From positions 104,710-168,709 of the forward strand of contig CAVPSX010000011.1 in the NCBI GenBank assembly GCA_963708515.1: 64,000 bases of DNA. The letters are read 5' to 3'. The notes below the pieces were generated by a model. The model saw only the letters and a list, made by a program, of their open reading frames with translations. It searched no databases and was not told the origin of the DNA. Each line of letters begins with the position of its first letter. Position 1 is the first letter of the stretch. This document shows, piece after piece, positions 47,301-64,000 of the stretch. Position numbers and translations under genes: made by a program. The stretch is from an uncultured delta proteobacterium (GTDB lineage: Bacteria > Desulfobacterota > Syntrophia > Syntrophales > Fen-1087).

Positions 47301-48766
47301 GGGATGACGGCGTCGCACTCAACGATGAATTCAGAACCTTTAATGGGCACAGGACGGCGGCGGCCGCTCGCATCCGGCTCTCCCAGCTCCATCCGGAGGC
47401 ATTCGATCCCCGTGAGCTTGCCGTCCTTGCCGACAATGCGAACCGGGGCTACCTGGAATTCCATCTTGATGCCCTCTTCGAGGGCCTCCTCGATTTCCTC
47501 CGGGGCTGCCGGCATTTCCTTGCGCGAGCGGCGATAGAGCACGAAAACGTCTCTGGAACCTGTGCGGACGGCGGTCCGGACGGCGTCCATGGCGACATTC
47601 CCGCCGCCGACAACGGCTACACGGTTGCCCAGGAAAACCTTCTCGCCCAGATTGACGCGCCGCAGATAATCGACCCCGTGAATGACGCCCTGCATCTCCT
47701 CTCCGGGAATATCCAGTTTGCTGGAGAGTACCGTCCCGCAGCCGATGAAAACGGCGTCGTAATCTTTCTGGAGTTTATCGAACGGAACGTCCTTGCCGAT
47801 CGCGGTATTGAGGTGGATTTTGACGCCCAGATCCTCAATCACCTTGATTTCCGCCTTGAGGACATCCTTGGGCAGGCGGTATTCGGGGATCCCCACCGCG
47901 AGCCAGCCGCCCGCCACGGGGAGAGATTCGAAGGCATCCACGCCGTAGCCCTGCGCCGCCAGGTAGTAGGCCGCGGAGAGCCCCGCCGGACCGGCGCCGA
48001 CAATAGCGACTTTCTTGTCTTTTTTCTCTTTCACTTCGGGAATATACCGGGTCTCGTCATTGAGATCGAGATCCGCCACAAAGCGTTTCAGGTGCATGAT
48101 GTCGATGGGCTGCTCCACCTTGCCCCGCATACAGGCTTCTTCGCAGGGATGGTTGCAGACGCGGCCGCATACCGAGGGGAAGGGGTTGTCCTGCTTGATG
48201 AGTTTGAGGGCTTCCCTGTACTTGCCCGCCGAGATCAGGGCGACGTACCCCTGGACGCTGATATGCGTGGGACAGGCCGCCTTGCAGGGAGACACACCAA
48301 GCTTGTCAATGGCAAACCCGCTCGGAATGGCCTGGGGAAAGTGGCGGTACACGGCCTTTCTTTCGTCCATGCCTTCGTTGAAACTGGACTTGACGGACAC
48401 GGGGCAGACCTTGGCACAGTCCCCGCAGCCCGTGCACTTGTCGAGATCGATAAACCGGGGGGTTTTGGTCAGTCTGACCCTGAAACGGCCCGGTTCGCCT
48501 TCCACGGCTTCCACCGTGCGGCGCGTCATGATTTCAACATTGGGATGGCGACCGACCTCCACGAGTTTGGGGGAAAGGATGCAGGCCGAACAGTCATTGG
48601 TGGGGAATGTTTTATCCAGCTGGGCCATCACGCCGCCGATGCTGATGCCGTTTTCAACGAGGTAAACCTTCATTCCGGAATTGGCAAGGTCCAGGGACGC
48701 CTGGATACCGGCGATACCCGACCCGACCACCATTACTGCACCGACTTTTTCATTATCTTTCAACAC
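44336..48766 (-). CDS. hdrL: HdrL: large HdrA with an inserted GltD-like NAD(P)H-binding module
   Basis: LDKTFPTNDC, ferredoxin motifs, GltD block (CGRVC, GAGPAG, GGGNVAMD), two QCVGSR..CS..CC HdrA cores, C-terminal ferredoxin. Confidence 0.88.
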   Translation of the reverse strand: MLKDNEKVGAVMVVGSGIAGIQASLDLANSGMKVYLVENGISIGGVMAQLDKTFPTNDCSACILSPKLVEVGRHPNVEIMTRRTVEAVEGEPGRFRVRLTKTPRFIDLDKCTGCGDCAKVCPVSVKSSFNEGMDERKAVYRHFPQAIPSGFAIDKLGVSPCKAACPTHISVQGYVALISAGKYREALKLIKQDNPFPSVCGRVCNHPCEEACMRGKVEQPIDIMHLKRFVADLDLNDETRYIPEVKEKKDKKVAIVGAGPAGLSAAYYLAAQGYGVDAFESLPVAGGWLAVGIPEYRLPKDVLKAEIKVIEDLGVKIHLNTAIGKDVPFDKLQKDYDAVFIGCGTVLSSKLDIPGEEMQGVIHGVDYLRRVNLGEKVFLGNRVAVVGGGNVAMDAVRTAVRTGSRDVFVLYRRSRKEMPAAPEEIEEALEEGIKMEFQVAPVRIVGKDGKLTGIECLRMELGEPDASGRRRPVPIKGSEFIVECDAVIPAIGQAADLDFVTKESGIAINKWKNFDVDPVTFQTNVPGVFAGGDVVTGPATVVKAVFAGKEAAVSIDRYLKGEDVAAGRARDWTKDLADKGDTTGVAKVFREKYPHMKPDERKTTFREVGIGFSEDAAVREANRCLACGICSECYQCVEACIAGAVNHDDAFAEENIEVGAIIAAPGFEAFDAGLRGEYGFGIYANVVTSIQFERILSASGPYFGHVQRLSDGKEPRKIAFIQCVGSRDTSCDNSWCSSVCCMYATKEAIIGKEHAKNLEPTIFYMDIRAHGKDFDRFVNRAKNEYGIRYIRSMPSTIKELQQSKNLLLKYVKEDGTLVEEEFDMVVLSVGLTPPKDAAGLSKALGIELQEHGFCKTTLENPVQTSREGVFVCGAFGGPKDIPETVMEASGAAACAQGLLASRRGTMTCEASVPLENDLRGIGPRTGVFVCHCGINIGGVVDVPAVVEYAKTLPNVVFTTDNLFTCSQDTAVKMGEVIKEYNLTRVVVASCSPRTHEGLFQENCEKAGLNRYLFEMANIRDQNSWVHMHEPEAATEKAKDLVRMAIAKAQYLKPLKPGQLSVNHAVLIIGGGLAGISAALALADQGFESHIVEKQFELGGNYRHLYYTLEGLDTKKHLAGLLRQVTDSKLIHVYTGADIKKIEGFIGNYKTTVEQKKEGETQFEHGVVIVATGAYELENKEYLQGLSAQVVPQRELEKYIAENDAKLSAAKSVVMIQCVGSRNAERPYCSRYCCSEAIKNALKLKEADPEKDVTILYRDIRTFGLKEDYYKRARELNVKFIRYDEDRKPEVRQDGNQIAVRVFDPILNEKVELKTDLLALSVGTVPNPGNEDIGKMLKVPTNQDGFFLEAHVKLRPVDFQTDGVFMCGMAHAPKLSEEAVTQAFAAVSRACTILTKDYIEAEGKTAYVIKERCMACGLCEINCPFSAIAVDAAEGCAVVNSVLCKGCGICTASCRMNAADLNGFNNEEVLAQIFNIN

Positions 48767-49141
48767 CTGATCACTCCTAAAGGGTTATATCTATTAAAGA
48801 ACGTGGATCCTGTTGCTGCTGCACAAATTGAGGCTGGGGGCCAAACAGGCGAGCGGTTATCACGATTTATCCACTCATGTCAAGGCCTATTTCGGGATTT
48901 TCTGTCGTGCCCTGCCCTTTGCGCCGCATCCCTGTTCAGCATCCATTTTTTGGTCCATTCGGTTGATGCGTATTTTGATTTAAAAAGAATTGAAATGAGT
49001 CGCCGTTGACCTACGTATAGCAGGAAGAAAGTGATCGGTTGTGAATGTTATCAACTAATTAAATGATTCTGAGAAGTTTGTATATTTAGGATTATGGACC
49101 GAACCAATGGCAGGGATAGGAATGCGACAACCTTTTGCCGA

Positions 49142-49683: not shown

Positions 49684-50114
49684 GAGTCAATCTCCGTTGT
49701 TGAATTGACGAAAAGTTATTTTTTCTGTCAGAGAAGACTACGAAGCTATAACTATTATGTCAAGGAGATTTTATCGAAACCTGATATCGTTTGCCATTTG
49801 ATATCAGCAACTTTTCATGACCCTGCCGGATTGTGTAGTACAGGAAGCTATACGTACTATAATCCGATTGCTCATTTTAAATCGCAAATACGGCGGAGAT
49901 GCTGGCTATACAAGTTCTCGGATTTTGATTTGGAGTCGACGTGGTGATTACCGCTCGAAAGCAGTGATGCCTTTGGAGTCCATGGAAATACCTCCCCGGT
50001 CACTTGCGTCATTTCTATTCTGTCTTCCTATTCCCACCCGCTTGGGTTTTATCCAACGGAAACCGGACAGTGTGTCGCGGTTTCCGGCGGACGTTTATCT
50101 GCTGTGGGTCAGAC

Positions 50115-50405
50115 TCATTTCTTCGCTTTGGCCGGTTTCTTGGCTGCCGGTTTTTTAGCGACCGCTTTTGCTTTGACCGGCGCTTTCGCTTTGGCTTTTG
50201 CCTTTGCTTTGACCGGCGCTTTCGCTTTGGCTTTTGCCTTTGCTTTTACCGGCGCCTTTGCAACCGCTTTTACCTTGGCTTTGGCTGTTTTCGCTGCCGC
50301 TTTTACCGGAGCCTTCACGAGGGTCTTTGTTTTGGCAGGGGTCTTTGTTCAGGTCTTTGCCGCGGCCTTCGCCGGTTTTGCCGGAACCTTCTTTGCTGTC
50401 GCCAT
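50115..50405 (-). pseudogene. Lys/Ala/Pro-rich histone H1-like protein with an in-frame TGA at codon 19
   Basis: GGAGG SD, then MATAKKVPAKPAKAAAKT*TKTPAKTKTLVKAPVKAAAK...KKPAKAKK; 36-bp tandem repeat near 50167-50254. Confidence 0.7.
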
Positions 50406-50995
50406 ACGTACTTCCTCCTTTTCAAATATTCGACCCCGCCTCACTGGGCCCCGGCCCGGCCGTGCCCTCCCGCGTGCGAAATCGTTAGACTCACCAGGAT
50501 GAATACTTTTTATCGTCGCTTTTATGTCAGCCGCATCTCCTGAAATCTTGCTGTCAACAGCAGATAGGTTTTTCTTTTTTTGAGCAAAGTGAGAAACAAG
50601 TTTCTGTTTTTCTGTTCCCAGAGCTTTTCTCTGCTGTTTGATTATCTTCTGAAGCTCAGCTTTTTCTGCCGCGCGAACTTGCTGGGGAGATAAAATTTCC
50701 ACACGTAAGCCTGTAAACGGACCTATAGAGCCAGGGATCAAATTGTATTTTTGAGCGATAGAATCTTCAATTTGGTAACCATTGACAAACTCCTTATTGC
50801 CTAAAACATCAAGGAATAATTTGCTCATAATTAGTCACCAATCCATTTCTGGCTCAATCCGATTAATGCGTACTTCCTCTTATATAGTACATGCCGTATT
50901 CATTCAAGGATTAGTTGAGGTCGGCGTAGTTTGATCATAACGCATTGAAATCTCGTATCCATATAAGAAAGCCAATGCCTGCCGAGTGCAGGAAG

Positions 50996-51301
50996 TTATG
51001 ATACGGCAACCGCGAGTGGTCGAATTTGCCGCGCTACTTGGTCTGACAGCGTTTCTTCCACTATATCCATGTCATATCGGCTTTGAATGTTCAGCCAGTA
51101 ACGCGGATTCTGCCCAAAATATCGGCCCAAACGCAGAGCAAGCTCGGCAGTTACCGGCCGTTTCCCGTTCACGACGTAATTGATACGCATGGGGGGAACA
51201 CCAATATCTTTCGCAAGGCGATATTGCGACAACGCCAACTCATCCAGTAATTCTTTTAGATATGTACCGGGATGCACCGGTGGAATACGTTTCTTGACCA
51301 C
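50996..51301 (-). CDS. higA: HigA-family antitoxin
   Basis: PVHPG..L, HTH, TAELALRL..YFG..YWLN.Q..YD. Confidence 0.92.
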   Translation of the reverse strand: MVKKRIPPVHPGTYLKELLDELALSQYRLAKDIGVPPMRINYVVNGKRPVTAELALRLGRYFGQNPRYWLNIQSRYDMDIVEETLSDQVARQIRPLAVAVS

Positions 51302-51313
51302 ACCACACCTCCA

Positions 51314-51595
51314 CTAATGATAATCCTCTATTTCTGCATCTTCTGCATGCCCGTCTAACCATATAAGACAGATTCGCAATTGACTGTTAATGCGGATACT
51401 CCATTGCCCTTTACGATCCCCTTTTAAAGCGTCTAGCCGATTTGAGGGCGGAAATCGTAAATCCTGAATCTCAATAGCTGCATCAATTGCGTTCAATTTC
51501 ATAAATGCCCGCTCTTGAATATCGCCAGGAAATTTACGAGAAAAGTCAGGACGAAAAATCTTCTCTGTTTCGTTACACTGAAAAGATCGAATCAT
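51314..51595 (-). CDS. higB: HigB-family (RelE-like) toxin
   Basis: MIRSF, PPSNRL..LKGDR.GQWSIRIN, DYH C-terminus; toxin-first order. Confidence 0.92.
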   Translation of the reverse strand: MIRSFQCNETEKIFRPDFSRKFPGDIQERAFMKLNAIDAAIEIQDLRFPPSNRLDALKGDRKGQWSIRINSQLRICLIWLDGHAEDAEIEDYH

Positions 51596-51600
51596 GGGTT

Positions 51601-51631
51601 AAATAGTAAACTATTTGTTTATTAATGTCAA
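51601..51631 (-). promoter_or_regulatory. higBA promoter with overlapping palindromic operator
   Basis: TTGACA-17 nt-TACTAT; palindrome AAATAGT-AA-ACTATTT (51601-51616) over the -10 box. Confidence 0.7.
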
Positions 51632-51800
51632 GCAAAAATGGGACCAGATTCTGGCAATATGAAAAGCAATACCGTTTGAAATCAAGCATATTCATCAAGG
51701 GCGACGTTTTGTGGATAACAGCTATCCGCATCAACCGGATGAACCACATTTAATCTCTTTTTACGGCCTTGTCGGAGGCGCTAAAAAGGCTGGCAGTTAG

Positions 51801-52079
51801 TTACCGTTCTTCCCTCGTATGCCAGATACGCAGCACATGGATTTTGGATTCCCGGATTTCGTAGCGCATCTCGTAATGGTTCACCAGGATGCGGCGCACC
51901 TCACGCGGTCCGAACTCTTCTAATTTTTCTCCGATGCGTGGATACTCCTTGAGACGGGCCAGTGCGGCCGTCAGTGATTGCACCATGCGGGCGGCTGCCT
52001 GTTTGTTAACCGGCGCCGGAAAATCGTATAACCGCACCAGATCGGAAAGCGCCTTGCTGGTCCATTTCAGTTCCATCAT
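51801..52079 (-). CDS. RelE/ParE-family toxin
   Basis: LKWTSKALSDL.RL, PRIGE.L, REVRR, YEMRYE, LRIWHTRE.R. Confidence 0.88.
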   Translation of the reverse strand: MMELKWTSKALSDLVRLYDFPAPVNKQAAARMVQSLTAALARLKEYPRIGEKLEEFGPREVRRILVNHYEMRYEIRESKIHVLRIWHTREER

Positions 52080-52219
52080 TGCGGAGATGGCAGCGGGGTT
52101 TCGGTGCTAAGGCTTTCTGCCCACTCTTGTACCGCCTGGTGGTCAATGACTCTGCCGGCATCGACATCGGACATCGCTTCTATTGTCAATCGCTGACGCT
52201 CCTCTTCATGGTCTACCCA
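52076..52219 (-). pseudogene. N-terminally truncated CopG/RHH-type antitoxin
   Basis: Frame reads WVDHEEERQRLTIEAMSDVDAGRVIDHQAVQEWAESLSTETPLPSPQ*, overlapping the toxin ATG; in-frame stop six codons upstream of the W. Confidence 0.78.
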
Positions 52220-52329
52220 TGTGAATAATAATGATTAAGTTAAGAAGTTTCTGTCAACGTAGGTTTATGTCATGTCATAGAGGATGAAACGCAAATTGAG
52301 CATCCGGACTTATTACGAAGCCGTATTTC

Positions 52330-52357
52330 TTGACTTTCCAAAATCCTTTGATATGAT
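52330..52357 (+). promoter_or_regulatory. sigma70-type promoter for the cyclase-alr genes
   Basis: TTGACT-16 nt-TATGAT with extended TG. Confidence 0.55.
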
Positions 52358-52451
52358 CCCGCGAGCACCGGCCAGGGAGGTTGCAAGCCTTGGCCGGACA
52401 GATCAGTATTGTCGTATCATTCCCGCAAGTCGAGATCTCCTCGATTGAGAA

Positions 52452-54707
52452 ATGCCAATGAAAGAGCGTTTTAAAAAATGGGGCGCCGTCTCCACCCTGA
52501 AGATCACACTGTTCATCATATTTCTTGCCTTGATCCTGTTTCTTGCGGATGTCACCTTCCTGCGATTCATGGAATTGAAGGCCCTTGACTTGAGAATGGT
52601 TTCGCGAGGGAATCTCTCTTCCGGCGGGGAAACGGTCATTGTCGCCATTGATGAAAAGAGCTTAAGCGAGCTGGGGCGATGGCCTTGGCCACGTACAGTG
52701 ATGGCGCGGCTTGTGGACCAGCTCAAGGCATATGGCGTAAAGGTGATTGGCTTTGATGTCATTTTCTCGGAACCTGATGATAACGCCAGCATAAAAACCA
52801 TCTCAGAGCTGTCCAGCGAGATCGCAAGGATAGGCATTCCCGATACAAGACTGAAAGGACTGCTGGAGAGAAAACGCGGCGACGCCGACACGGATGCGGA
52901 GCTGGCCCGTTCCGTCGAGCGGGGGAAAAATGTAACCCTTGGTTATTTCTTCCATATCTCAGATAAGGAGGTGGGCCATTTAACCCCTGAACAAATCAAG
53001 GCCGGCGCCGCCGATATCGCCAACGGCCGCTATCAGATGGTACGGGCCGCGAAAAAAATAGACGAGCATGTGTTTGTACGCGCCTATTCCGCCGTGACCA
53101 ATATTCGGAAGCTGACCGATGCCGCTGAAAACAGTGGTTATTTCAATGCCTTTCCGGACAGCGACGGTGTAATTCGCTGGGCGCCTATGGTCATCCGATT
53201 TGAGGATGATTACTATGCTCCCCTTTCGCTCGCCATGCTGCTTCAATATCAGGAATGGCCTATGTTGTCTCTCAAAATCGCCGACTTCGGCGTAGAGTCG
53301 GTCAGACTGGATAACCTGGTCATCCCGACGGACGAGACGGGGCGATTACTGGTCAATTATCTGGGGCCTGCCGGCACCTTCCCGCATTATTCGATTTCCG
53401 ATGTCCTTCACGGCCGGCTTTCGGCCGACCTATTCAAAGACAAAATCGTCCTGGTGGGCGCAACGGCCACCGGCATCTACGATATGCGCGTGACGCCCTT
53501 CAGCGCCGTATATCCGGGAGTGGAAATCCACGCGACGGTTATCGATAATATCCTGCATCAGCATTTTCTGATCCATTCCGGCTGGACGAAATTTATCGAC
53601 TTTTGCATGATCCTCGTGCTGGGATTCATCGTCGGTGTCGTAATTCCCCGGGCCAGGGCCGCCCGCGGCGTGCTGCTTATTCTGGTTCTGCTGGCCGTGT
53701 TCGTCGGGGCCAACACCTATGTTTTTTCCCGTTACAACATCTGGCTGAACCTGATCTATCCGGTCCTGACCATGATGACCATTTATCTTGCCATTACCGT
53801 TTACCGCTACATCACCGAAGAAAGGGAAAAGAAAAAAATCCGGGGCGCCTTTCAGTACTATTTGACGGCTTCCGTCATAAACGAAATGCTTAAGGACCCC
53901 ACCAAGCTTAAGCTGGGCGGCGATAAGAAGGATCTGACGGTCCTCTTCTCGGATATCCGCGGCTTCACCACGATCTCGGAGAAACTGACGCCGGAAGAAC
54001 TTGTGCATCTGCTCAATGAATATCTCACGGCCATGACCGAGATCGTTTTCAAATACGACGGACTTCTGGACAAATATATGGGCGACGCCATCATGGCGGT
54101 TTACGGCGCTCCTCTGCATCAGCCCGATCATCGCATCCGCGCCTGCCGGACTGCGCTGGACATGGTTGAATCGCTGAAGAAACTACAGCAGAAATGGTCC
54201 GAAGAAGGTCGTCCGATTCTCAACATCGGCATCGGGATCAACAGCGGCGACATGGTGGTGGGGAATATGGGTTCCCAGATGCGATTCGATTATACCGTCA
54301 TGGGCGACAGTGTGAACCTGGGTTCCCGGTTGGAAGGGATTAACAAGGAATATGGCACGAGCATCATTATCAGCGAATATACTTATGAAGGCGTCAAGGA
54401 TGTCCTGACCTGCCGAGAACTGGATTCCGTCCGGGTCAAGGGCAAGAAGCTGCCCGTCAAAATCTACGAATTGCTCTGTGACAAGAATGACGCCGCACCT
54501 TTGGAGGCTTTTATCCAGCGCTTTAATGAAGCGCTGGATAAATATAAACAGGCCCTGTGGGATGAAGCCTGCGCCGCATTTGAAAAGGTACTGGAGATCC
54601 GGCCGGACGATCCTCCCTCCCGGGTTTATATCCAGCGCTGCGAGGACCTGAGGGAATGCCCGCCGGACCAGCCTTGGGATTGTGTCTTTACGATGACGAA
54701 GAAATAA
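52452..54707 (+). CDS. CHASE2-domain class III adenylate cyclase
   Basis: GRWPWPR and PGVEIHA (CHASE2), 3 TMs, FSDIRGFT, DKYMGDA, DYTVMGDSVNLGSRLE, TPR-like tail. Confidence 0.94.
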   Translation: MPMKERFKKWGAVSTLKITLFIIFLALILFLADVTFLRFMELKALDLRMVSRGNLSSGGETVIVAIDEKSLSELGRWPWPRTVMARLVDQLKAYGVKVIGFDVIFSEPDDNASIKTISELSSEIARIGIPDTRLKGLLERKRGDADTDAELARSVERGKNVTLGYFFHISDKEVGHLTPEQIKAGAADIANGRYQMVRAAKKIDEHVFVRAYSAVTNIRKLTDAAENSGYFNAFPDSDGVIRWAPMVIRFEDDYYAPLSLAMLLQYQEWPMLSLKIADFGVESVRLDNLVIPTDETGRLLVNYLGPAGTFPHYSISDVLHGRLSADLFKDKIVLVGATATGIYDMRVTPFSAVYPGVEIHATVIDNILHQHFLIHSGWTKFIDFCMILVLGFIVGVVIPRARAARGVLLILVLLAVFVGANTYVFSRYNIWLNLIYPVLTMMTIYLAITVYRYITEEREKKKIRGAFQYYLTASVINEMLKDPTKLKLGGDKKDLTVLFSDIRGFTTISEKLTPEELVHLLNEYLTAMTEIVFKYDGLLDKYMGDAIMAVYGAPLHQPDHRIRACRTALDMVESLKKLQQKWSEEGRPILNIGIGINSGDMVVGNMGSQMRFDYTVMGDSVNLGSRLEGINKEYGTSIIISEYTYEGVKDVLTCRELDSVRVKGKKLPVKIYELLCDKNDAAPLEAFIQRFNEALDKYKQALWDEACAAFEKVLEIRPDDPPSRVYIQRCEDLRECPPDQPWDCVFTMTKK

Positions 54708-54721
54708 TCAGGAGGTCAATA

Positions 54722-56674
54722 TTGGCTGAGGAAAATCGGTACAGAAGCTGGGTGGAGGTCGATCTTGACCATTTTACAAACAACTGGGATGAGATGAAGC
54801 GTCTCGTGGGCCCCGGCGTCCGCATCATGCAGGTCGTCAAGGCGGACGCCTACGGCCACGGCGCGATAGAAATCGCCCATCTGGCACTGAAAAACGGAGC
54901 GGCCTGTTTCGGGGTTGCCAACGCCGATGAAGGCGTCCAGCTCCGTGTCGGCGGCATCAACGCTCCCATTGTCATCCTGAGCCCCTCCCCCGATTCCGAA
55001 ATCAATCTGATCATCAAATACAGCCTGATCCCCTCCGTCTCCGACATCGGCTTCGCCCGGGAATTGCAGAAACGCCTAAAAAAGGCCGACCTGCGGGCGC
55101 CTATCCACATCGAGGTGGACACCGGCATGGGCCGGGGGGGTACCATTCATTACGAAGCCTTTGACATGATAAAGGAAATCCTTTCCTTGCCCAATATTAT
55201 CATTGAAGGAATCTTTTCCCACCTGGCCGCCAGCGAGACACAGATCGACTACAATCAAAGGCAGTGGCATCTGTTCCGGGGGCTCCTCGATCGACTAACG
55301 GACCATCAGATCGAGATCCCCATCAAGCACATGTGCAACAGCGGGGCCATCCTGAACTATCCGCAATTCCATCTGAATATGGTCCGTCCCGGAATCATGT
55401 CCTACGGCATCTATCCTTCTGATGAAACGAGAGACAAGGCCCAATTGGCTCCGGTAATGAGCTTCAAGAGCCGGATTGTGCTTACCAAGGAATTCCCGGA
55501 GGGCTACAGCATCGGCTACAACCGGACCTACATCACGTACAAACCGACCCGGATCGCCACCATCCCCGTCGGTTACGGCGACGGCTACGGCGTGATCCTG
55601 TCCAATCAGGGCGAAGTGCTGATCCGCGGCAAGCGCGCTCCCGTTGTGGGCAGGGTTTCCATGGACATGTGCACCGTCAACGTCACGCACATTCCCGACT
55701 GCCGGACGGGCGACGAAGTGGTCATGATGGGCAGGCAGGGCGACGATTCGATCACCGCCAACGAGATCGCCGATCGGACCAAGACCATCAGTTACGAGAT
55801 CCTGTGCGCCCTTGGCAAACGGGCGCCGCGCGTTTTTCTGCAAAAAGGAAAAACGGATAGCGTGGCTCCCCGCCTGCGGCGGATATTCATCCCCGATGAA
55901 GAAAAATCAATCGCCCGGATCGACAACATCATCCGGCACTGCTTTCACACGCGGGCAAGGAACGAGGAATTGGGCGATGCCATTTATTATGAAATGTTCG
56001 AAACCCTCTTCGGCAAGGAAGACCGGCAGCTTGAATTGCGGACGAACTTCCGTTATGATATTAACGTGACCGAATTCACCGAGGAAGAAATCCGTGCAGA
56101 CCGCCAGGCCGGCAAGGAGTTCCGTGTCACGACCCTTATCGCGTACACCAAAACGCTTAACCACCCTGTCTTCATGATCGGCTGCGCTGCGAACAATGAG
56201 CAATTGGCGTCCTTCTTCGACGATAAACGCTGCGAATACCGGTGGCTCCTGGGTCAGCGGCAGGATGCCATCACGGAAAAGGACTTCCGTGTCAGCCGGG
56301 TGCGAATCGATGAGGAGGAGGTCCCCATCATCCGGACGGAAGCGACCGACCGTGGTTACGAAGTCTGGTGCGGCAGTGAAGATCTGAAGAAAAAAGTCAA
56401 CCGGCAAGCCAGAATTTCCATTGAAATTGTCACCCGGAAATCAAAACGGAACCACCTTTTCTCCGTTTATCTCGTCTATCCGACACGCGGACTGGACATT
56501 ACTTTCAATTACCACGGCGCCCGCATTAAAAATGTCCGCGATATCAGTTTTTTTGCCGGCCGGCATCCCGACCCTGAGATCATCCGGGAAAAAGGAAAAT
56601 CCATCAGGCTTCGAATCAGCGACGATGAATGGATTTTCCCCACCAGCGGCGTGACCTTTATCTGGGATCCATAA
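54722..56674 (+). CDS. alr: alanine racemase fused to a ~270-aa C-terminal domain of unknown function
   Basis: VVKADAYGHG, DTGMGR, VRPGI, IGYNRTY, GYGDG, GRVSMD, TISYE; TTG start after GGAGG; frame continues about 820 nt past the usual Alr end. Confidence 0.9.
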   Translation: MAEENRYRSWVEVDLDHFTNNWDEMKRLVGPGVRIMQVVKADAYGHGAIEIAHLALKNGAACFGVANADEGVQLRVGGINAPIVILSPSPDSEINLIIKYSLIPSVSDIGFARELQKRLKKADLRAPIHIEVDTGMGRGGTIHYEAFDMIKEILSLPNIIIEGIFSHLAASETQIDYNQRQWHLFRGLLDRLTDHQIEIPIKHMCNSGAILNYPQFHLNMVRPGIMSYGIYPSDETRDKAQLAPVMSFKSRIVLTKEFPEGYSIGYNRTYITYKPTRIATIPVGYGDGYGVILSNQGEVLIRGKRAPVVGRVSMDMCTVNVTHIPDCRTGDEVVMMGRQGDDSITANEIADRTKTISYEILCALGKRAPRVFLQKGKTDSVAPRLRRIFIPDEEKSIARIDNIIRHCFHTRARNEELGDAIYYEMFETLFGKEDRQLELRTNFRYDINVTEFTEEEIRADRQAGKEFRVTTLIAYTKTLNHPVFMIGCAANNEQLASFFDDKRCEYRWLLGQRQDAITEKDFRVSRVRIDEEEVPIIRTEATDRGYEVWCGSEDLKKKVNRQARISIEIVTRKSKRNHLFSVYLVYPTRGLDITFNYHGARIKNVRDISFFAGRHPDPEIIREKGKSIRLRISDDEWIFPTSGVTFIWDP

Positions 56675-56682
56675 CAAATATA

Positions 56683-56863
56683 GGGGCCTTTCAAAAATGG
56701 CTTCACCGCAGCTCAAAATCTTTTTCTCTTGAAATATGATGATGCTTAAATATATTTTAAATCAATAAATTAGTCATGGGGACATGACAGAGTCGTGTCC
56801 CCATCAACGAAAAATCTTTCATTCGCTGCTTGCGAACCATTTTTCACCGGTTATGCAAAGCTC
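56683..56863 (-). mobile_element. MITE-like dispersed repeat, copy 3 (inverted)
   Basis: Reverse complement matches the termini and central AT-rich core of copy 1; contains ATGGGGACATGAC-AGA-GTCGTGTCCCCAT. Confidence 0.75.
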
Positions 56864-56893
56864 CCATATAGGGTTTATGGAGTTTTTTTAATT

Positions 56894-57946
56894 ATGAACA
56901 AATTGCGTGTCGGCGTTATTATGGGCGGCATGTCTTCCGAACGGGAAGTCTCGCTCAACAGCGGCAGGAATGTCTTCGACAACCTGGATCGTCAATATTA
57001 TGAGCCCAAACCGGTTTTCATGGACGGCCAGGGGCGGCTGTGGATCATCCCCTGGCAGCTTGTCTCCCAGAACACAACGGTGGATATTGCCGACCATCTC
57101 GAAAGAGAAGCCCGCCGGATCGCCTATGAAGATCTGAGAAAAGAAATCGATTTTGCCTTCATTGCCCTGCACGGCAAGTACGGCGATGACGGCTGTATTC
57201 AGGGCCTGCTGGAACTCCTGAGGATCCCGTATACCGGCCCGGGGGTGCTGGCCTCGGCGCTGGGCATGGACAAGTATCTCCAGCAGAAAGTCCTCGAGGC
57301 AGCGGGCATTGATGTTCCCCGCAGCATGTTGATCCGCGCCGCAGACTGGAGGGAAAATCCCTCGGCCGTTCGGGAGGCCGTCGGAACCCGCTTCCCATTT
57401 CCCTGCTTTACCAAACCGATCCGGGAAGGCTCCAGCGTCGGCGTTACAAAAGTTATCGATGAAAGAACCCTGGCTGAAGGCATTGACGAGGCCCTGAAAT
57501 GGGACAATGCCGTGCTGGTCGAGGAGCATCTGGACGGCACCGAGTTTTCCGCGATTGTGCTGGAAGGAGACGAAGCCGAAACGCTCGGGCTAACGGAAAT
57601 CTATCCACAGAGCGCCTATTACACGTATGACGATAAATATATGCCCGGCCGCTGCCGGAAATTCACCCCTCCAAAAAATATCCCCACGGAAAAGATCGCT
57701 GCAATCAAGCAATGCGTCATCCGGGCCTTCCATGCCCTCGGCTTCAGGTCTTACGGCCGCATCGACGGATTTATCCTGAAGGACAACCGGATTCTGATCA
57801 CCGATCCCAACTCCTCATCGGGAATGGCGCCTTCGTCGTTTTTTTTTGAGCAGGCCGCCTGTGCGGGTATGCTGCCCGTCATGATTTTATCCCGACTGAT
57901 TGAAAACGCCGTCAAAATTCATGCGGAAAAGCACGGCCCCCTGTAA
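56894..57946 (+). CDS. ddl: D-alanine--D-alanine ligase family protein 1 (atypical DPNSSSG motif)
   Basis: GGMSSEREVS, LHGKYGDDG, MDK, EGSSVG, YDDKY, GRID. Confidence 0.88.
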   Translation: MNKLRVGVIMGGMSSEREVSLNSGRNVFDNLDRQYYEPKPVFMDGQGRLWIIPWQLVSQNTTVDIADHLEREARRIAYEDLRKEIDFAFIALHGKYGDDGCIQGLLELLRIPYTGPGVLASALGMDKYLQQKVLEAAGIDVPRSMLIRAADWRENPSAVREAVGTRFPFPCFTKPIREGSSVGVTKVIDERTLAEGIDEALKWDNAVLVEEHLDGTEFSAIVLEGDEAETLGLTEIYPQSAYYTYDDKYMPGRCRKFTPPKNIPTEKIAAIKQCVIRAFHALGFRSYGRIDGFILKDNRILITDPNSSSGMAPSSFFFEQAACAGMLPVMILSRLIENAVKIHAEKHGPL

Positions 57947-58181
57947 AATCAAGAGATTCCGGCTTTTTTCATCCTGTTTCATATAATTTTCACTTGCACT
58001 TCCCGTGTTTTTTTGCCATGTTGCACGCAAGCGCTGGGGGAGTACCGCCCAATCCCCCAATCTATATTTTAGCGAAAGTCATTATTCATGAAACGCTCTT
58101 ATCGAAGCAGCAACCTGGAATTCTACGGAGACTACCTGGGTTTTGCTGTTGCCTGATGAGGTGTCAAAAAGGAAGAAAGAC

Positions 58182-59255
58182 ATGACGGAAGGACAGGCGG
58201 CAGAGGCAAAACTTAAAGTGGGCGTCATCATGGGAGGCGTTTCTTCGGAAAAGGAAGTCTCCCTGGAGAGCGGCAGGAATATTTTCAGCAAACTCGACCG
58301 CGGCAAATACGAGCCCATCCCCATTTTCATGGACAGCGAGGCGGCCTTTTGGGAAATCCCGCTAAAGCTGCTCATGCGCAACAGTACGCGCGACATCGAG
58401 GAAGACCTCACCTCCGAGGCGACGCGGATACCCTATGAAACCCTGAAATCGCGCGTGGACCTGATCTGCCTGGGCCTGCACGGAAAATACGGCGAAGACG
58501 GCTGCATCCAGGGACTGTTCGAGCTGCTGCGCATTCCATATACCGGCTCCGGCGTTCTGGCCTCGGCCCTGGGAATGGATAAATGGACCGGCCGGAAGAT
58601 TCTGTCCCTCAGCGGCATCGACGTCCCGCGCACATTGCCGGTTTTCAAGCGGCAGTGGACATCCGGGGCGCGTGCTGCGATCCTGGAGGAGGTCGCTGAC
58701 AGGATCGGTTTCCCCTGCGTCATCAAGCCCACGCGTGAAGGGTGCAGCACGGCCGTGACCAAGGTGGTTTCCCCGGATGACATTACGGCGGCCCTCGATG
58801 ACGCCTTCATCTGGGATGACACCGCCCTGGTGGAGGAATTTCTGGCGGGAATGGAGGTGACCTGCGGCGTAATCGGCAATGACCAGCCCCAGGCTCTGGC
58901 AACTTCCGAAACCATCCCCACGGCGGCGATTCTGTCACTCGAAGACAAGTTTCTCTACGGCCAGGGCGAAAACAAGACGCCTGCCCGTCTGCCCGGGGAA
59001 ACCCTCCGGAAAATTGAGGATGTCGCTGTGATGACCTTCCGGAGTCTCGATCTGAAATGTTATGCGAGGATCGATATGTTCGTCACCCCGGAAGGACGGG
59101 TGGTTGTGCTCGAACCGAATACCCTGCCGGGAATGACGCCCTCCACCGTCCTCTTTCATCAAGCGGCGGCTGCCGGCATCACCCAGTCGGGTCTGATCGA
59201 CCGGGTGATTCAGTTCGCCCTGGAGGCGCATGCTCAGAAAAAAGGACCCCTGTAA
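58182..59255 (+). CDS. ddl: D-alanine--D-alanine ligase family protein 2
   Basis: GGVSSEKEVS, LHGKYGEDG, MDK, ARID, EPNTLPGMT. Confidence 0.88.
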   Translation: MTEGQAAEAKLKVGVIMGGVSSEKEVSLESGRNIFSKLDRGKYEPIPIFMDSEAAFWEIPLKLLMRNSTRDIEEDLTSEATRIPYETLKSRVDLICLGLHGKYGEDGCIQGLFELLRIPYTGSGVLASALGMDKWTGRKILSLSGIDVPRTLPVFKRQWTSGARAAILEEVADRIGFPCVIKPTREGCSTAVTKVVSPDDITAALDDAFIWDDTALVEEFLAGMEVTCGVIGNDQPQALATSETIPTAAILSLEDKFLYGQGENKTPARLPGETLRKIEDVAVMTFRSLDLKCYARIDMFVTPEGRVVVLEPNTLPGMTPSTVLFHQAAAAGITQSGLIDRVIQFALEAHAQKKGPL

Positions 59256-60035
59256 ATGAAGCCCCTTGTTGCAGGCCTCGACACCATCGGCAGAACCGTT
59301 ATCCATTACGTCGAAGAAACGGGAAGGATTATGCTCCTGTTTTCCTCGATCCTGTTCTGGATGTTCCGCCCCCCCATCAAATGGTGGAATATTCTCAAGC
59401 AAATGGAATTCGTGGGTGTTAAATCCATTTTTGTCGTCGTCCTGACGGGAACCTTTACCGGTATGGTCATGACCCTCCAAGGATATCATGGTTTTAGACT
59501 GTTCAGCGCCGAAACCATGGTCGGTTCCACGGTGGCGCTGAGCATGACACGCGAACTGGGGCCGGTGTTGACCTCGCTCATGGTCACGGCGCGCGCCGGA
59601 TCGGCCATGGCGGCGGAACTGGGAACCATGCGCGTCACCGAACAGATCGATGCCCTGTCTGTAATGGCCGCCAATCCCATCAAGCACCTGATTGTCCCGC
59701 GCGTCATTGCCGGCGTTCTCATGGTTCCCCTGCTGACGGTCATCGCCAATTTCGTCGGGATCGCGGGGAGCTTCTTCGTGGGCGTCGAACTCCTGAATAT
59801 CAATCAGGGCGATTTCGTCAATAATATCTACAAGATGTTGGAGTTAGACGACATTTACAACGGCCTCGTCAAGGCCGCCTTTTTCGGTCTGGTTCTGTCG
59901 GTCATCGGTTGCTACAAGGGATTCAATACCACCGGCGGCGCGGAAGGCGTGGGCCGGGCCACGACGCAGGCCGTGGTGATTTCATCGATTACGATTCTTG
60001 TAAGCGACTACTTTCTGACGGCGATTATGTTCTAA
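59256..60035 (+). CDS. mlaE: MlaE-family ABC permease
   Basis: RELGPV, AELGTMRVTEQIDAL, GAEGVGRATT.AVV. Confidence 0.94.
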   Translation: MKPLVAGLDTIGRTVIHYVEETGRIMLLFSSILFWMFRPPIKWWNILKQMEFVGVKSIFVVVLTGTFTGMVMTLQGYHGFRLFSAETMVGSTVALSMTRELGPVLTSLMVTARAGSAMAAELGTMRVTEQIDALSVMAANPIKHLIVPRVIAGVLMVPLLTVIANFVGIAGSFFVGVELLNINQGDFVNNIYKMLELDDIYNGLVKAAFFGLVLSVIGCYKGFNTTGGAEGVGRATTQAVVISSITILVSDYFLTAIMF

Positions 60036-60062
60036 ATTAAGCGATAAAGATTGTTTTATGAT

Positions 60063-60809
60063 ATGATTAAGCTTGTGGATATTCATAAATCCTATGGGAA
60101 GCAGAAGGTCCTGGACGGCCTGAGCCTGACCATCGAAGCGGGCAAGACCACCGTGATCATCGGACGTAGCGGCGGTGGAAAAAGTGTCCTGCTGAAACAC
60201 ATCATCGGCCTGATCAAGCCGGACAGCGGTCACGTGCTGATTGATCAGAGTGATATCACCCGGCTCTCTGAAAAAGACCTCAATGAGGTGCGTAAAAAGT
60301 TCGGCATGCTCTTTCAGGAGGCGGCACTTTTCGATTCCATGACGGTGGGTGAAAACGTGGCTTTCCCGCTGCGGGAACAAACTGAGTTGAAGGATGAGGA
60401 AATCAGGCATATCGTGGCGGATCGTCTCCGAGCCGTCGGTTTATCCGGGGTGGAGGGGAAAATGCCTTCCGAACTCAGCGGCGGCATGCGCAAGCGCGTC
60501 GGCCTGGCGCGTGCAATCGCCTTACACCCGCAGATCGTGCTCTTTGACGAGCCGACGACGGGGTTGGACCCGATCATGACGGAAGCCATCAATCAGCTCA
60601 TCATCGACACGCAGAAAAACTTCAACCTGACCTGTGTGGTAATCAGCCATGATATTCAATCCATTTTCCGCATTGGCCATAAAATTGCCATGCTCTACGA
60701 AGGACAGATCATCGCATACGGCACGCCGGATGAGATCCGGGCATCGGACAATCCCGTGATGAAACAGTTTCTATCCGGAAGCGTGGACGGACCGATTCAA
60801 GTTTTATAA
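60063..60809 (+). CDS. mlaF: MlaF-family ABC ATPase
   Basis: GRSGGGKS, LFQEAALFDS, PSELSGGMRKR, DEPTTGLDP. Confidence 0.94.
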   Translation: MIKLVDIHKSYGKQKVLDGLSLTIEAGKTTVIIGRSGGGKSVLLKHIIGLIKPDSGHVLIDQSDITRLSEKDLNEVRKKFGMLFQEAALFDSMTVGENVAFPLREQTELKDEEIRHIVADRLRAVGLSGVEGKMPSELSGGMRKRVGLARAIALHPQIVLFDEPTTGLDPIMTEAINQLIIDTQKNFNLTCVVISHDIQSIFRIGHKIAMLYEGQIIAYGTPDEIRASDNPVMKQFLSGSVDGPIQVL

Positions 60810-60828
60810 AAGGGGACAAGGAGAAAAA

Positions 60829-62310
60829 ATGGGTACCATCGCAACAGAGGCAAAAGTCGGCCTGTTTATTCTCATCGCCATGCTGATTTTGGGATATATG
60901 ACCATGCAGGTGGGTCAGAGGGGATTCGGCATGAAAAAGGGCTACCATGTCGATGTCGTATTTGACAATGCTGCCGGCCTGAACAAGTACTCGTCCGTGC
61001 AGATTGCCGGTGTGGAAGTGGGCCGCGTGGATGATATCCTGCTGAAGGACGGCAAGGCCCTGGTCCGATTACAGATCATTCCCACGGTGATCCTGGAGAA
61101 GGACGTCGTCGCTTCAATCAAGACACGCGGCGTTCTGGGGGACAAGTATATCGAAATCACTCCGGGTACGCGTGGGATGGCTGCCCTGGAACCGGGCGAA
61201 CAGATTCAGAAAGTACAACGCCAGGCCGACATCGACCGTCTTCTCCATCAGATCGGCGCGATTGCCGACGACATCAAAACAGTCTCCGGCACGCTCAGCA
61301 ATGTCCTGGGCGGCCAGGCCGGCCAGGAGAGCATCGGCGGCATCCTCGAAAACATGCAGATGCTGACAAAGAATATCAACAATCTGGTAGTCAGCAATGA
61401 GGCGACCATTCGCAGCATGCTGCTCAACGCCCAGGAACTGACAACCAATCTGAACCGGGTGGTGGTGAAAAATGACGACAAGGTCGGTGAAATGATCGAC
61501 AGCCTGCGCGGCGCCTCCAAAGAAATGGAGAAAACCTTTGCTTCATTCAGCCAGATTGCCGATGAGGTAAAACGAGGGGAAGGCACCCTCGGACAGCTCA
61601 TGAAGGACGATACCACGATCACCAATCTGAACAAGACCCTTGCATCACTGCAGGAGGTGAGCGACAAAATCAACCAGGGCAAAGGCACCCTGGGAAAGCT
61701 CGTCAATGAAGAAGAAACCGTCAACAACCTGAACGAGAGCCTTTCCGGCATCAACCGCTACGTCAACAAGGCCGAGCAATTCCGTACCTTTCTGGGTTAC
61801 CGGGGCGAATACCTCTGGAACACAAGCAATTTCAAAAGCTATCTGGACATCAAAATTCAGCCCAAGCAGGATCAGTTCTATCTTCTGGGCCTGGTGAGCG
61901 ATCCCCGGGGCCGGCTGACCGTTCGGGAGTCCACCACGAACGGCGTCATGACAAAGACGGAAGAATGGGACAAGAACGGCCTGCTATTCAACGCCCAGAT
62001 CGGCAAACGTTTCCGGAACGTGGTCCTGCGGGGCGGCATTCTGGAATCCACAGGTGGAGTCGGCGTGGACTACATGGCCCTCAACGACCGGCTGAAACTA
62101 ACCTTTGAAGCATTTGATTTCTCTTCAAGCCGTAACGCCCACCTTAAGGGGTACGCTGATATTCAGTTATTCAAGTATCTCTACCTGACAGGCGGATGGG
62201 ATGACTTTATCAGCAACCAGGGGAACAGTTCCGGCTTTGTGGGCCTTTCTATCCGCTTTGAAGACGACGATCTGAAATACCTGCTCACATCGACGCCGAT
62301 CCCGAAATAG
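60829..62310 (+). CDS. mlaD: MlaD/MCE-domain protein with long helical region and beta-rich C-terminus
   Basis: EAKVG TM, GL..S.V..AGV.VG.V, G.LGDKYIEI.PG, repeated GTLG.L motifs. Confidence 0.88.
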   Translation: MGTIATEAKVGLFILIAMLILGYMTMQVGQRGFGMKKGYHVDVVFDNAAGLNKYSSVQIAGVEVGRVDDILLKDGKALVRLQIIPTVILEKDVVASIKTRGVLGDKYIEITPGTRGMAALEPGEQIQKVQRQADIDRLLHQIGAIADDIKTVSGTLSNVLGGQAGQESIGGILENMQMLTKNINNLVVSNEATIRSMLLNAQELTTNLNRVVVKNDDKVGEMIDSLRGASKEMEKTFASFSQIADEVKRGEGTLGQLMKDDTTITNLNKTLASLQEVSDKINQGKGTLGKLVNEEETVNNLNESLSGINRYVNKAEQFRTFLGYRGEYLWNTSNFKSYLDIKIQPKQDQFYLLGLVSDPRGRLTVRESTTNGVMTKTEEWDKNGLLFNAQIGKRFRNVVLRGGILESTGGVGVDYMALNDRLKLTFEAFDFSSSRNAHLKGYADIQLFKYLYLTGGWDDFISNQGNSSGFVGLSIRFEDDDLKYLLTSTPIPK

Positions 62311-62507
62311 AGGTTTCATCTTCCCCTCCGGCTATTCTGCTGTCTACGGCGGTGCTTGAAAAATGCAACCTTTCCAATAAGAAATAAACTCGGACATCCT
62401 TCAATGGAAACAGATAAATAGCCATGGAAAGCAAGTCTGCACAGTCAAAAAAATGGACTTGACAATGGGGAACCAATTCTTATATTAGCTGCGCGTCCGG
62501 GTCAACC

Positions 62508-63062
62508 GTGCCGAAAGAGAGGAGATCTCCCTGGGTCATGTATTTCAATGCTTCACAGATGTCCCTTGCGGAGAACGCCTTCCAGCACGCTGAAAAGCTC
62601 GCGGGACGTTATTTCCGGATCAGTCCGGAAGCGATGAAGGCTCATCGCTATGATATCAGAACGCTGGCCTTTCTGGATCAGCACGAGGTCAGCAGCCAGG
62701 CATTTGCGCATTTATGCAAGTATCACTACCAACAGGGTGATAAAACAGACCCGGAGCAGGGAATTCATTTTTACCGGATCTGCCTGCAGGATAACCGGAT
62801 ATTAGATGCGGTGGACCGAGCCGGGCCTTTTATAAAGCTGAACCCCCTGCTGCTGTATATTGCCGCTCATGAACTGGTGCACGTGATCCGATTTGATAGC
62901 GGATATATTGATTTTGACGCGCCGGTGGCGGAGAAGCAGCGGGAAGAGGAAAAAGTTCACGAGATCACCCGGGACATGCTGCACAGCCTGGGCGCCCCGG
63001 AGATGAATCTCGTCGTGGAGTGTTTCAGCGGCCGTTATCAGATCGGCGATTTATATCAGTAA
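62508..63062 (+). CDS. hypothetical protein with an HEXXH zinc-binding motif
   Basis: LLYIAAHELVH and downstream EE; TTGACA..TATATT promoter just upstream. Confidence 0.7.
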   Translation: MPKERRSPWVMYFNASQMSLAENAFQHAEKLAGRYFRISPEAMKAHRYDIRTLAFLDQHEVSSQAFAHLCKYHYQQGDKTDPEQGIHFYRICLQDNRILDAVDRAGPFIKLNPLLLYIAAHELVHVIRFDSGYIDFDAPVAEKQREEEKVHEITRDMLHSLGAPEMNLVVECFSGRYQIGDLYQ

Positions 63063-63098
63063 CAGCATAAATGAAAAGCGCTTGGAGGTAAACAGGTC

Positions 63099-63395
63099 AT
63101 GCCCATTTACGAGTACAAATGCAAGAAATGTGGGAAGGAATACGAGATATTCCAAAGGATTACGGATCCTGCACGGACATCCTGCAAATTTTGCAAGGGA
63201 CCCGCACGGAAACTCATATCCAGAACAACCTTCCATTTGAGGGGTTCCGGCTGGTACGCTACGGACTACGGTGGAAAGAAAGCGCCGGCCAGTGAAACAA
63301 CGCATGAAGATAAATCAGCCGCCGCTTCGACGAGCGATCCCGCCCCCGATACAACCGTTAAGTCACCCAACACAACAGCAGAAAGTGGCGATTAA
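63099..63395 (+). CDS. FmdB-family zinc ribbon protein
   Basis: MPIYEYKC..CG, C..C, F.LRGSGWY.TDY; GGAGGT SD. Confidence 0.92.
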   Translation: MPIYEYKCKKCGKEYEIFQRITDPARTSCKFCKGPARKLISRTTFHLRGSGWYATDYGGKKAPASETTHEDKSAAASTSDPAPDTTVKSPNTTAESGD

Positions 63396-63591
63396 TAACA
63401 TTCTTTTGAACTGCGATGGTCCAGATGGAGGCGGATTCCCCAACGGGAATCCGCCTCTTTTTCATCTCATAATGCACCAGCCGGCGCGAACAGCATCGGT
63501 CACCTGTCCCTGCTGTCAGAGCAGGGTATGATGTCGTTTTCATTCATGTTGGTCGTCGAAAAAAAGGAACGGTAACCATTGAGAAAAAGCA

Positions 63592-64000
63592 TTACTTGAA
63601 ATCGTTGTCTGATGACTCATACCCCCTGATCATCTGGGTTTCAACCTGCTGACGGATCTGCTCAAACTCATTTTCATCCAGCTCAGCAGGCACGACCGTC
63701 AGTTCTCTGCCAAAGCGCAGCAGCACCCTGCTGAAGGGTTTAGGCACCATGAAACGGTCCCAACTGCTGAATATCCAGGGATTTTCATAGGAGACACACG
63801 CCGGACAGATCGCCGCCCCCGTCCGCTGCGCCAGGGTGATCAGACCCGGTTTGACCACCCTCGGCGGCCCGAGCGGGCCATCGACAATGTGACCGCCCAC
63901 CCGGTCCTGTATCAGGGCATCCGCCATCTGCCGCAGGGCTTCCTTTCCGCCCAGACTGCTGGAACCGCGGATCGCCCGCCAACCAATATGCGCCACGACG
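63592..64000 (-). CDS. DUF374 / lysophospholipid acyltransferase family protein (5' end outside the window)
   Basis: IRGSSS.GG, VDGP.GP, SWDRF.VP.PF. Confidence 0.85.
   Translation of the reverse strand, partial: VVAHIGWRAIRGSSSLGGKEALRQMADALIQDRVGGHIVDGPLGPPRVVKPGLITLAQRTGAAICPACVSYENPWIFSSWDRFMVPKPFSRVLLRFGRELTVVPAELDENEFEQIRQQVETQMIRGYESSDNDFK

Follow-up and report, generated by a model that had tools for sequence, protein, structure and literature searches.

A conserved Syntrophales locus joins a CHASE2 cyclase gene to the housekeeping genes of a tailed alanine racemase and two unlike Ddl ligases

Textbooks list alanine racemase (Alr) and the D-Ala-D-Ala ligase Ddl among the antibiotic targets, and the usual view of either enzyme is that of a simple homodimer. 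The two Ddl paralogues of Escherichia coli and Salmonella, DdlA and DdlB, are homodimeric and redundant, their genes are unlinked and both carry a Tyr216 lid. Excerpts of one study connect the specificity for dipeptides or depsipeptides with the Y216-E15-S150 triad and report that the E. coli Y216F variant gains depsipeptide activity and that L. reuteri F258Y turns vancomycin-sensitive (PMC3378904). Regarding the sensor cyclases of the CHASE2 type, excerpts from work on Sinorhizobium meliloti describe enzymes that work via the CRP-like regulator Clr (PMC13001267, PMC5498481). Here, we have analyzed a stretch of 64,000 nucleotides (nt) from a Syntrophales genome, hereafter the window (CAVPSX010000011.1, positions 104,710-168,709, forward strand; coordinates are counted from the window start), in which the gene of a CHASE2 class III adenylate cyclase is followed by alr with a long C-terminal extension, hereafter the tail, and by two ddl genes.

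The cyclase gene (751 amino acids (aa); 52452..54707, assigned with Pfam) leads a run of seven genes on the + strand that reaches to an mlaD/MCE-like gene. It ends with the stop codon TAA at 54705-54707 and, after a gap of 14 nt in which direct reading of the sequence located an AGGAGG ribosome-binding site (54710..54715, + strand), alr begins with TTG at 54722. This start was preferred to an upstream ATG (54656) because the relatives of the tailed Alr are 650-652 aa long. The catalytic part of the 650-aa racemase (aa 1-379, TIGR00492) spans 54722..55858 and the tail 55859..56674, both on the + strand. They are followed after 219 nt by ddl1 (350 aa, 56894..57946, + strand) and, after another 235 nt, by ddl2 (357 aa, 58182..59255, + strand), each assigned with NF002528. 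All four genes were thus found in the order described in the original prediction, that is, a cyclase 14 nt before an extended Alr and then two Ddl on the + strand. A search of open-access text returned no paper linking CHASE2 with alanine racemase or a CHASE2 adenylate cyclase with peptidoglycan, and none on alanine racemase in Syntrophales or on an Alr C-terminal extension or domain of unknown function. The cluster is a real, conserved and undescribed variant of the D-alanine branch. We hold with moderate confidence that it is an order-specific, housekeeping D-alanine branch of peptidoglycan synthesis, working through the steps proposed further below, and not an accessory switch.

The housekeeping status of these genes could be established from the genome as a whole (2.8 Mb, 23 contigs, 99.4% complete). 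Only one strong Ala_racemase_N match was found in it, and its only strong Ddl matches are ddl1 and ddl2 (149-154 bits, with the next ATP-grasp match at 87 bits). The Mur ligases lie on a different contig, which holds neither ddl; there, the match to one Mur ligase of the dcw region is split into two adjacent pieces that lie in different open frames (of 283 and 205 aa; G000:C18:130906-131527), possibly through a frameshift or an assembly error. Since the window carries the sole alr and the sole ddl genes of the genome, they are housekeeping genes and not an accessory "terminus system". The racemase core is well preserved: Ala_racemase_N (224.8 bits) and Ala_racemase_C (161.3 bits) account for aa 1-374, and the TIGR00492 score of 367 bits lies above the cut-off of 168, with the curated VanT cut-offs not being reached. 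K40 and Y266, which we take to be the PLP-binding Lys and the second catalytic residue (K39/Y265 in the Geobacillus enzyme), are invariant in a 53-row alignment. With 650 aa and an extra module of 270 aa that folds alone, this Alr departs from the single-module format of ~360-390 aa.

We have then compared the two ligases, using E. coli DdlB as the reference for residue numbering. Ddl1 and Ddl2 are 46% identical and both score above the family cut-offs, with 269.7 and 273.3 bits for NF002528 (cut-off 262) and 257.3 and 250.7 bits for TIGR01205 (cut-off 245.65), respectively. The ATP-grasp catalytic residues K144, K215, R255, D257, E270, N272 and G276 are kept in both, Ddl1 having Asp at position 270. 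The canonical lid triad E15-S150-Y216 is present in Ddl1, together with D270 and F282, and absent from Ddl2, which has an altered lid (C150/F216) together with E270, T281 and V282. These signatures are fixed in each type: S150, Y216, D270, S281 and F282 were found in 59-60 of 60 rows of Ddl1 orthologues, and C150, F216, E270, T281 and V282 in all 43 rows of Ddl2 orthologues, not counting seven further "ddl2" rows that showed the Ddl1 signature at all five sites and were taken as re-hits of ddl1.

Looking for relatives of Ddl2 in longer proteins, we obtained 370 hits at E ≤ 1e-30 out of 8000 scored candidates and examined 74 of them, which are 700-870 aa long, come from ranks 1-74 and have two Ddl fused in one chain. 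By bit score, the N-terminal half was nearer to Ddl1 and the C-terminal half nearer to Ddl2 in 73/74 cases each. The signature residues followed the same pattern, with S150/Y216 in 74/74 and D270 in 73/74 N-terminal halves, and C150/F216/E270/T281 in all 74 C-terminal halves. The named fused proteins are labelled as Candidatus Dependentiae, and one as a Bathyarchaeia metagenome-assembled genome (MAG). Moreover, ten further genomes of the order had either both Ddl types, unlinked (seven genomes), or neither, with one distant Ddl instead (three genomes), so that the both-or-neither pattern held in 10/10. Because of the gene fusion and this pattern, Ddl1 and Ddl2 likely form a heterodimer. The original prediction had offered alternative stem termini or a heterodimer as the role of the pair. 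The heterodimer part gained support from the fused proteins and is the best-supported part of the earlier interpretation; as to alternative termini, the two ligases do differ at lid residues linked to specificity. Among the matches listed from open-access text, nothing relevant on a Ddl heterodimer or paralogue pair was found, and the papers searched gave no description of the fused tandem Ddl-Ddl proteins (~715-870 aa).

The conservation of the cluster was assessed with a scan of one genome per species, which gave 217 stretches containing a relative of the tail; the best 80 of the 217 were analyzed, all of them Syntrophales-type MAGs by title. A CHASE2 cyclase lies directly 5' of alr in 44 of the 56 loci having at least 2.6 kb of upstream sequence, and one more locus has an open reading frame (ORF) with CHASE2 only. 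The gap between the cyclase stop and the alr start ranges from 9 to 290 nt and is ≤28 nt in 18/44. Downstream, ddl1 lies 3' of alr in 57/71 loci, 19 of which have only 3-12 nt between the two genes, both ddl genes are present in 43/58, and mlaE comes after ddl2 in 20/52, abutting it (-4 to +3 nt) in 14 of these. All these distances are approximate, as they were measured to the aligned start. By contrast, the gene beyond the cyclase, a large oxidoreductase, is common to only 4/80 loci. The conserved block therefore starts at the cyclase, and the persistence of the cyclase adjacency while the next gene out turns over means that the arrangement is more than chance. Survey of this adjacency in relatives, as suggested with the original prediction, thus had a positive outcome within the order. 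In the 12/56 loci that lack the cyclase, the upstream genes are unrelated to one another.

We have also examined the tail as a protein domain. It comprises ~270 aa and gave no match in Pfam, even with E values of up to 10, or in NCBIfam and PADLOC, where the limit was 0.1; the Pfam search covered the families that bind cyclic nucleotide monophosphates (cNMP), namely CAP/CNB (PF00027) and GAF. Folded alone with AlphaFold2 (71-row alignment), the tail reached a predicted local distance difference test score (pLDDT) of 92.8 and a predicted template modelling score (pTM) of 0.87. In this model, the conserved linker is followed by a helical hairpin and then by a beta-sandwich of ~215 aa. The best matches in VIA-align span tail residues 57-271 and were lpg2210 (4g2a; Z 11.2, root-mean-square deviation 3.8 Å over 169 aligned residues), BDI_1141 (3kd4; Z 11.1, 3.4 Å over 160 residues), OST1/ribophorin (Z 10.6 and 10.4) and the N-terminal domains of M1 aminopeptidases (Z 8.1-10.0). 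Foldseek against the PDB also pointed to M1 aminopeptidases, with TM scores of only 0.34-0.38, and the 50 fold matches listed for the tail are beta-sandwiches of kinds other than CAP- or GAF-like. The modelled fold thus resembles, in its best matches, the beta-sandwich of the M1 aminopeptidase N-terminal domain, with the fold search being unsettled and fold sharing saying nothing on function. In the full-length Alr model (pTM 0.59), the linker at aa 381-395 falls below a pLDDT of 50 and, for these two reasons, the orientation of the tail is not fixed in the monomer model. Linker residues P383, R386 and R387 are nevertheless at least 90% conserved across phyla.

The wider family of the tail extends beyond racemases. 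At E ≤ 0.001, it includes 707 relatives of 357-1138 aa, and an exhaustive profile-free search at the same threshold returned 161 representatives. Outside racemases, these include proteins of ~350-420 aa, with one to three hydrophobic N-terminal helices in 29 of the 31 inspected. One metagenome protein (P0228, 459 aa) carries a PycC-like cyclase domain at aa 26-167 (Guanylate_cyc and PADLOC PycC models) and a tail relative at aa 221-442. An ESM Atlas search of the tail reached unnamed clusters only (best 0.94), and the named search gave up to 0.77. Only a C-terminal W..P..G..F.W pattern is near-invariant across the wider family and no polar residue is invariant; this scarcity of invariant residues would suit a binding module more than an enzyme. 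A narrower profile of tail relatives had no matches in viral contigs, and tblastn of three membrane-anchored relatives found none in plasmids or phages. In the phylum sample described below, the only membrane-anchored relative (L108:301-9042; G040:C28) is surrounded by genes for a primase of the archaeo-eukaryotic (AEP-like) type, an HD phosphohydrolase, a dCMP-type deaminase, a Ros/MucR protein, a Rad52-like protein and a PD-(D/E)XK nuclease, a neighbourhood that looks like a mobile or defence-type island.

Among 401 genomes sampled across the phylum, the tail was found in this genome, in all 13 genomes sampled from six families with the label "same order" and in 1 of the 387 others; the 366 unmatched genomes are unlisted, so that order-wide completeness is not implied. 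A second group of tailed racemases, with 33-47% identity overall, carries the NCBI labels Cloacimonadota and, for another lineage, Gemmatimonadota. It is represented by seven metagenome loci, and among the five with usable upstream sequence the neighbour of alr was a PIN-PhoH gene in four and a SPOR-domain gene in one, with no cyclase (0/5). The tail is an undescribed family, and its fusion with the racemase occurs in at least three phyla. Within the order, the cyclase domain next to alr is 74-93% identical across loci. In five genomes lacking the adjacency, the best cyclase match is 39-44% identical, the level of the paralogue in this genome, and by this measure their assemblies, of unstated completeness, have no orthologue of the window cyclase, with the tailed Alr being kept in 5/5. 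Likewise, the tailed Alr is accompanied in three of five further genomes by a single Ddl that is 30-34% identical to Ddl2, and two of these three still have the cyclase beside alr. Judged from these genomes, Alr plus tail is the constant unit, and neither the cyclase nor the Ddl pair is required for the tail.

The window cyclase consists of a CHASE2 sensor (aa 24-392; Pfam, 238 bits, 1.5e-70) and a class III cyclase domain (aa 493-672; Guanylate_cyc, 94.9 bits, 6e-27), and thus has the sensor, catalytic domain and key residues expected of a CHASE2 class III cyclase. Among natural cyclase domains, its best solved relative was Pseudomonas aeruginosa CyaB (3r5g, 1.5e-43). Aligned with CyaB, the window cyclase has both metal Asp residues, the Asn and Arg and, as its substrate pair, Lys (DKYMGD) and Asp (FDYTV), where Cya2 (2w01), which was included in the alignment, carries Glu and Gly. 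We presume that the metal, substrate-specificity and transition-state roles of these residues hold here. On this basis, the protein looks functional as an adenylate cyclase with an intact catalytic domain. The genome has 11 matches to CAP-type cNMP-binding domains, which are potential receptors of cyclic AMP (cAMP). CRP-type sites were considered and rejected, since palindromes of the consensus numbered 11 in the window against 19.8 expected and did not occur 5' of the cyclase. The same contig carries, outside the window, a second CHASE2 cyclase paralogue (G000:C11:84143-85995); it was matched by tblastn in two pieces (37% and 55% identical) that fall into different reading frames, possibly because of a frameshift. 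At one Syntrophales-type metagenome locus (L121:2828-5146), a GAF-GAF-PAS class III cyclase stands directly 5' of the CHASE2 cyclase-alr-ddl run.

The housekeeping reading that we prefer would work as follows. The cyclase and alr would be co-transcribed, with the gene of a CHASE2 membrane sensor at the head of the run. The tail would serve as a binding or regulatory module acting in cis on the racemase, a role tied neither to the cyclase nor to the Ddl pair. Ddl1 and Ddl2 would associate into a heterodimer whose two active sites differ: that of Ddl1 would make D-Ala-D-Ala, and that of Ddl2, with Cys150/Phe216, would have a loosened pocket for the second substrate. Finally, the cAMP made by the cyclase would act via ordinary CAP-family receptors, and the operon link would couple an envelope-facing sensor to the expression of wall-precursor genes, not control the racemase directly.

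Several observations weigh against this proposal. No ligand, partner or catalytic site was found for the tail, and the evidence for the ligase heterodimer consists of gene fusions and co-occurrence. The adjacency of cyclase and alr is limited to one order, so shared descent accounts for part of it. The cyclase fusion of P0228 keeps a link between the tail and nucleotide signalling open. The DNA between alr and ddl1 carries an interspersed repeat of ~180 nt (56687..56869, unstranded) with a promoter-like and a terminator-like site, which means that alr and ddl1 may be less tightly coupled in this genome than in relatives. The repeat has 184 blastn matches in its own genome, many of them 170-190 nt long at 74-90% identity, and the depth of metagenome contigs spikes at its position; the contig of one relative joins 56670 to 56894 via 40 other letters, that is, without the repeat. 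Lastly, one metatranscriptome run (0.06 share of sampled words) yielded contigs of 150-420 nt, mostly 90-95% alike, none of which spans a gene junction.

Three alternatives have to be weighed, two of which concern the cyclase. According to the original prediction, an external cue is converted into cAMP by the CHASE2 cyclase, and the supply of D-Ala is set by a direct effect of cAMP, or of the cyclase as such, on the Alr tail. The adjacency in 44/56 loci while the outer flank turns over argues for such a link, as do the 14-nt gap in the window and the short gaps (≤28 nt) in 18/44 loci. Members of the tail family that follow two or three membrane helices or, in one protein, a PycC-like cyclase domain are likewise in contexts typical of sensor modules. 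The properties of the tail itself argue otherwise: it matches no cNMP-binding family even at E up to 10 and its top folds are sandwiches like the M1 aminopeptidase N-terminal domain. In the second tailed-racemase group, PIN-PhoH or SPOR-domain genes take the place of the cyclase (0/5), and the five genomes above that lack the adjacency all keep the tail with cyclase matches at paralogue level (39-44%). The 11 CAP-type domain matches elsewhere in the genome also speak against this model. A direct control of the racemase by cAMP finds no support here, and we consider the model very unlikely. At the other extreme, the cyclase may merely sit upstream of the D-Ala genes through an inherited gene order in one order of bacteria, with no functional coupling. 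The confinement of the arrangement to that order agrees with this, and so do the separability of all parts and the 12/56 loci (one with the CHASE2-only ORF) where unrelated genes replace the cyclase. Mere inheritance would sit poorly with an adjacency that persists down to 62-70% tail identity next to an outer flank shared by only 4/80 loci, with short gaps on the same strand, and with neighbour cyclase domains that stay 74-93% identical against the 39-44% of the best match where the adjacency is lost. We regard the absence of any coupling as possible, albeit on the unlikely side.

The remaining alternative concerns the ligases, which might be independent enzymes of the Van type, with Ddl1 making D-Ala-D-Ala and Ddl2 alone an alternative terminus such as D-Ala-D-lactate. 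The Phe at the Tyr216 position and the Cys at the Ser150 position of Ddl2 (43/43 orthologue rows) are compatible with this, as are the depsipeptide activity of E. coli Y216F and the vancomycin sensitivity of L. reuteri F258Y in the excerpts cited above (PMC3378904). Nevertheless, the pair was kept or lost together in 10/10 genomes, and 74 proteins combine the two types in one chain. Furthermore, both ligases score far under the curated Van cut-offs, with 197.3 (Ddl1) and 214.1 bits (Ddl2) for VanG (cut-off 495) and 159.7 and 182.5 bits for D_ala_D_lac (cut-off 550), and no vanH-, vanX/Y- or vanRS-like gene was found nearby, the neighbours being the cyclase, alr, mlaEFD and toxin-antitoxin genes. 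The gene that lies between the two ddl genes in relatives is outer-membrane-barrel-like. Independent action of the ligases is therefore doubtful in our view. A still bolder combination, in which the tail is an allosteric receptor (for cAMP from the co-transcribed cyclase, or for a wall precursor) and the Ddl1-Ddl2 heterodimer makes two termini, D-Ala-D-Ala and a D-Ala-D-X dipeptide or depsipeptide, seems highly improbable; if true, it would amount to a signal-tunable peptidoglycan terminus in a diderm anaerobe.

The inter-ddl gene, which is absent from the window, occupies ~900 nt and encodes ~260 aa in many relatives (L022:12212-13048, L033:11950-12792, L014:12030-12821 and L060:5868-6665). 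Its product starts with a signal peptide, terminates in Phe or Trp and, as far as these features tell, looks like a protein of the outer-membrane beta-barrel type; an identity as VanH was rejected on the same grounds.

The + strand run continues beyond ddl2 with mlaE (59256..60035), whose start is the base right after the ddl2 stop, the gene of an mlaF-like ATPase (60051..60809) and that of a 493-aa MlaD/MCE-like protein (60829..62310), all three on the + strand and assigned with Pfam and NCBIfam. Of the parts of the Mla lipid transporter, which are a permease (MlaE), an ATPase (MlaF) and a substrate-binding protein (MlaD), MlaE scored 286.8 bits against a cut-off of 212.2 and the MlaF-like protein 237 bits, below the equivalog cut-off of 441; the MCE-like protein contains the MlaD domain. 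In a distant lineage (L114:7977-14241), a SPOR-domain gene and alr are followed by genes for MlaD, an ABC auxiliary lipoprotein, an unknown protein and a STAS-MlaE protein, which is a second, independent alr-Mla neighbourhood. Further downstream in the window, also on the + strand, lie the genes of a 184-aa protein with a HELVH motif of the HExxH type (62508..63062, from the translation, with no Pfam match) and of a Zn_ribbon_8 protein (63099..63395, Pfam). Each of the two was found in 39/80 loci, directly after ddl2 where mlaEFD is absent. The HELVH gene has its own promoter-like site at 62459-62486. This conserved pair may belong to the transcription unit as putative members.

Upstream of the cyclase start, at ~95 nt, a consensus scan returned a promoter-like site on the + strand (52330..52357; TTGACT-16 nt with TG-TATGAT), a pattern match only, with 10/12 positions matched. 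The opposite strand 5' of the cyclase carries toxin-antitoxin genes of the ParE and HigB types, which makes the cyclase the first gene of the + strand run. The ParE-like toxin gene (51801-52079, - strand) is common to 0/80 related loci, and the HigB-like toxin gene (51314-51595) with its HTH_3 partner (50996-51301), both on the - strand, is in none of the 80 either. Farther out lies the gene of a multi-domain flavin/4Fe-4S oxidoreductase of 1476 aa (44336-49009, - strand). An overlapping + strand ORF of 931 aa gave no family match and is probably a shadow frame in GC-rich DNA. An Rfam scan of positions 50000-64000 of the window returned no match at E up to 1.

An obligate, order-wide Ddl pair with one canonical and one Phe/Cys lid, which other lineages have in the form of one fused polypeptide, would be a novel quaternary arrangement for this enzyme and would offer a natural test of the role of the lid triad. 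A ligand of the tail, a module also found on membrane anchors and on a nucleotide cyclase, could reveal a new control point of wall-precursor supply. The link to the cyclase is the weakest part of the proposal, yet it provides a concrete, testable example in which envelope genes are associated with a CHASE2 sensor.

Set against known systems, the ligases are like DdlA and DdlB (2dln, 1iov, 3i12) in that they belong to the same family above its cut-offs, keep the catalytic residues and come as two paralogues per genome; they differ in having distinct fixed signatures, in being kept or lost together and in being fused in other lineages. Ddl2 shares a Phe at the Tyr216 position with the Phe-lid D-Ala-D-lactate ligases of Lactobacillus and Leuconostoc (1ehi) and with DdlB Y216F (1iow). 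Unlike them, it also has Cys150, Thr281 and Val282, is always accompanied by a Tyr-lid partner, and comes from a diderm anaerobe. The association of a sensor gene, an extra-domain racemase and an alternative-lid ligase recalls the Van clusters (VanS/VanR, VanT, VanC/G or VanA/B), from which the locus differs in having no two-component system, vanH or vanX and in that its alr and ddl are the genome's only copies, with a housekeeping character and not that of inducible add-ons. As in MurF-Alr (NF008897) and the membrane-bound VanT (NF033132), an Alr core is joined to a second module; in those two proteins, a module of known function precedes the Alr core, whereas the one found here follows it and belongs to no described family. 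Lastly, the window cyclase has the same pairing of CHASE2 and class III cyclase domains as the S. meliloti enzymes, which act through a cAMP-dependent transcription regulator. The excerpts on S. meliloti report no link to cell-wall precursor genes, while the window cyclase leads a putative alr operon.

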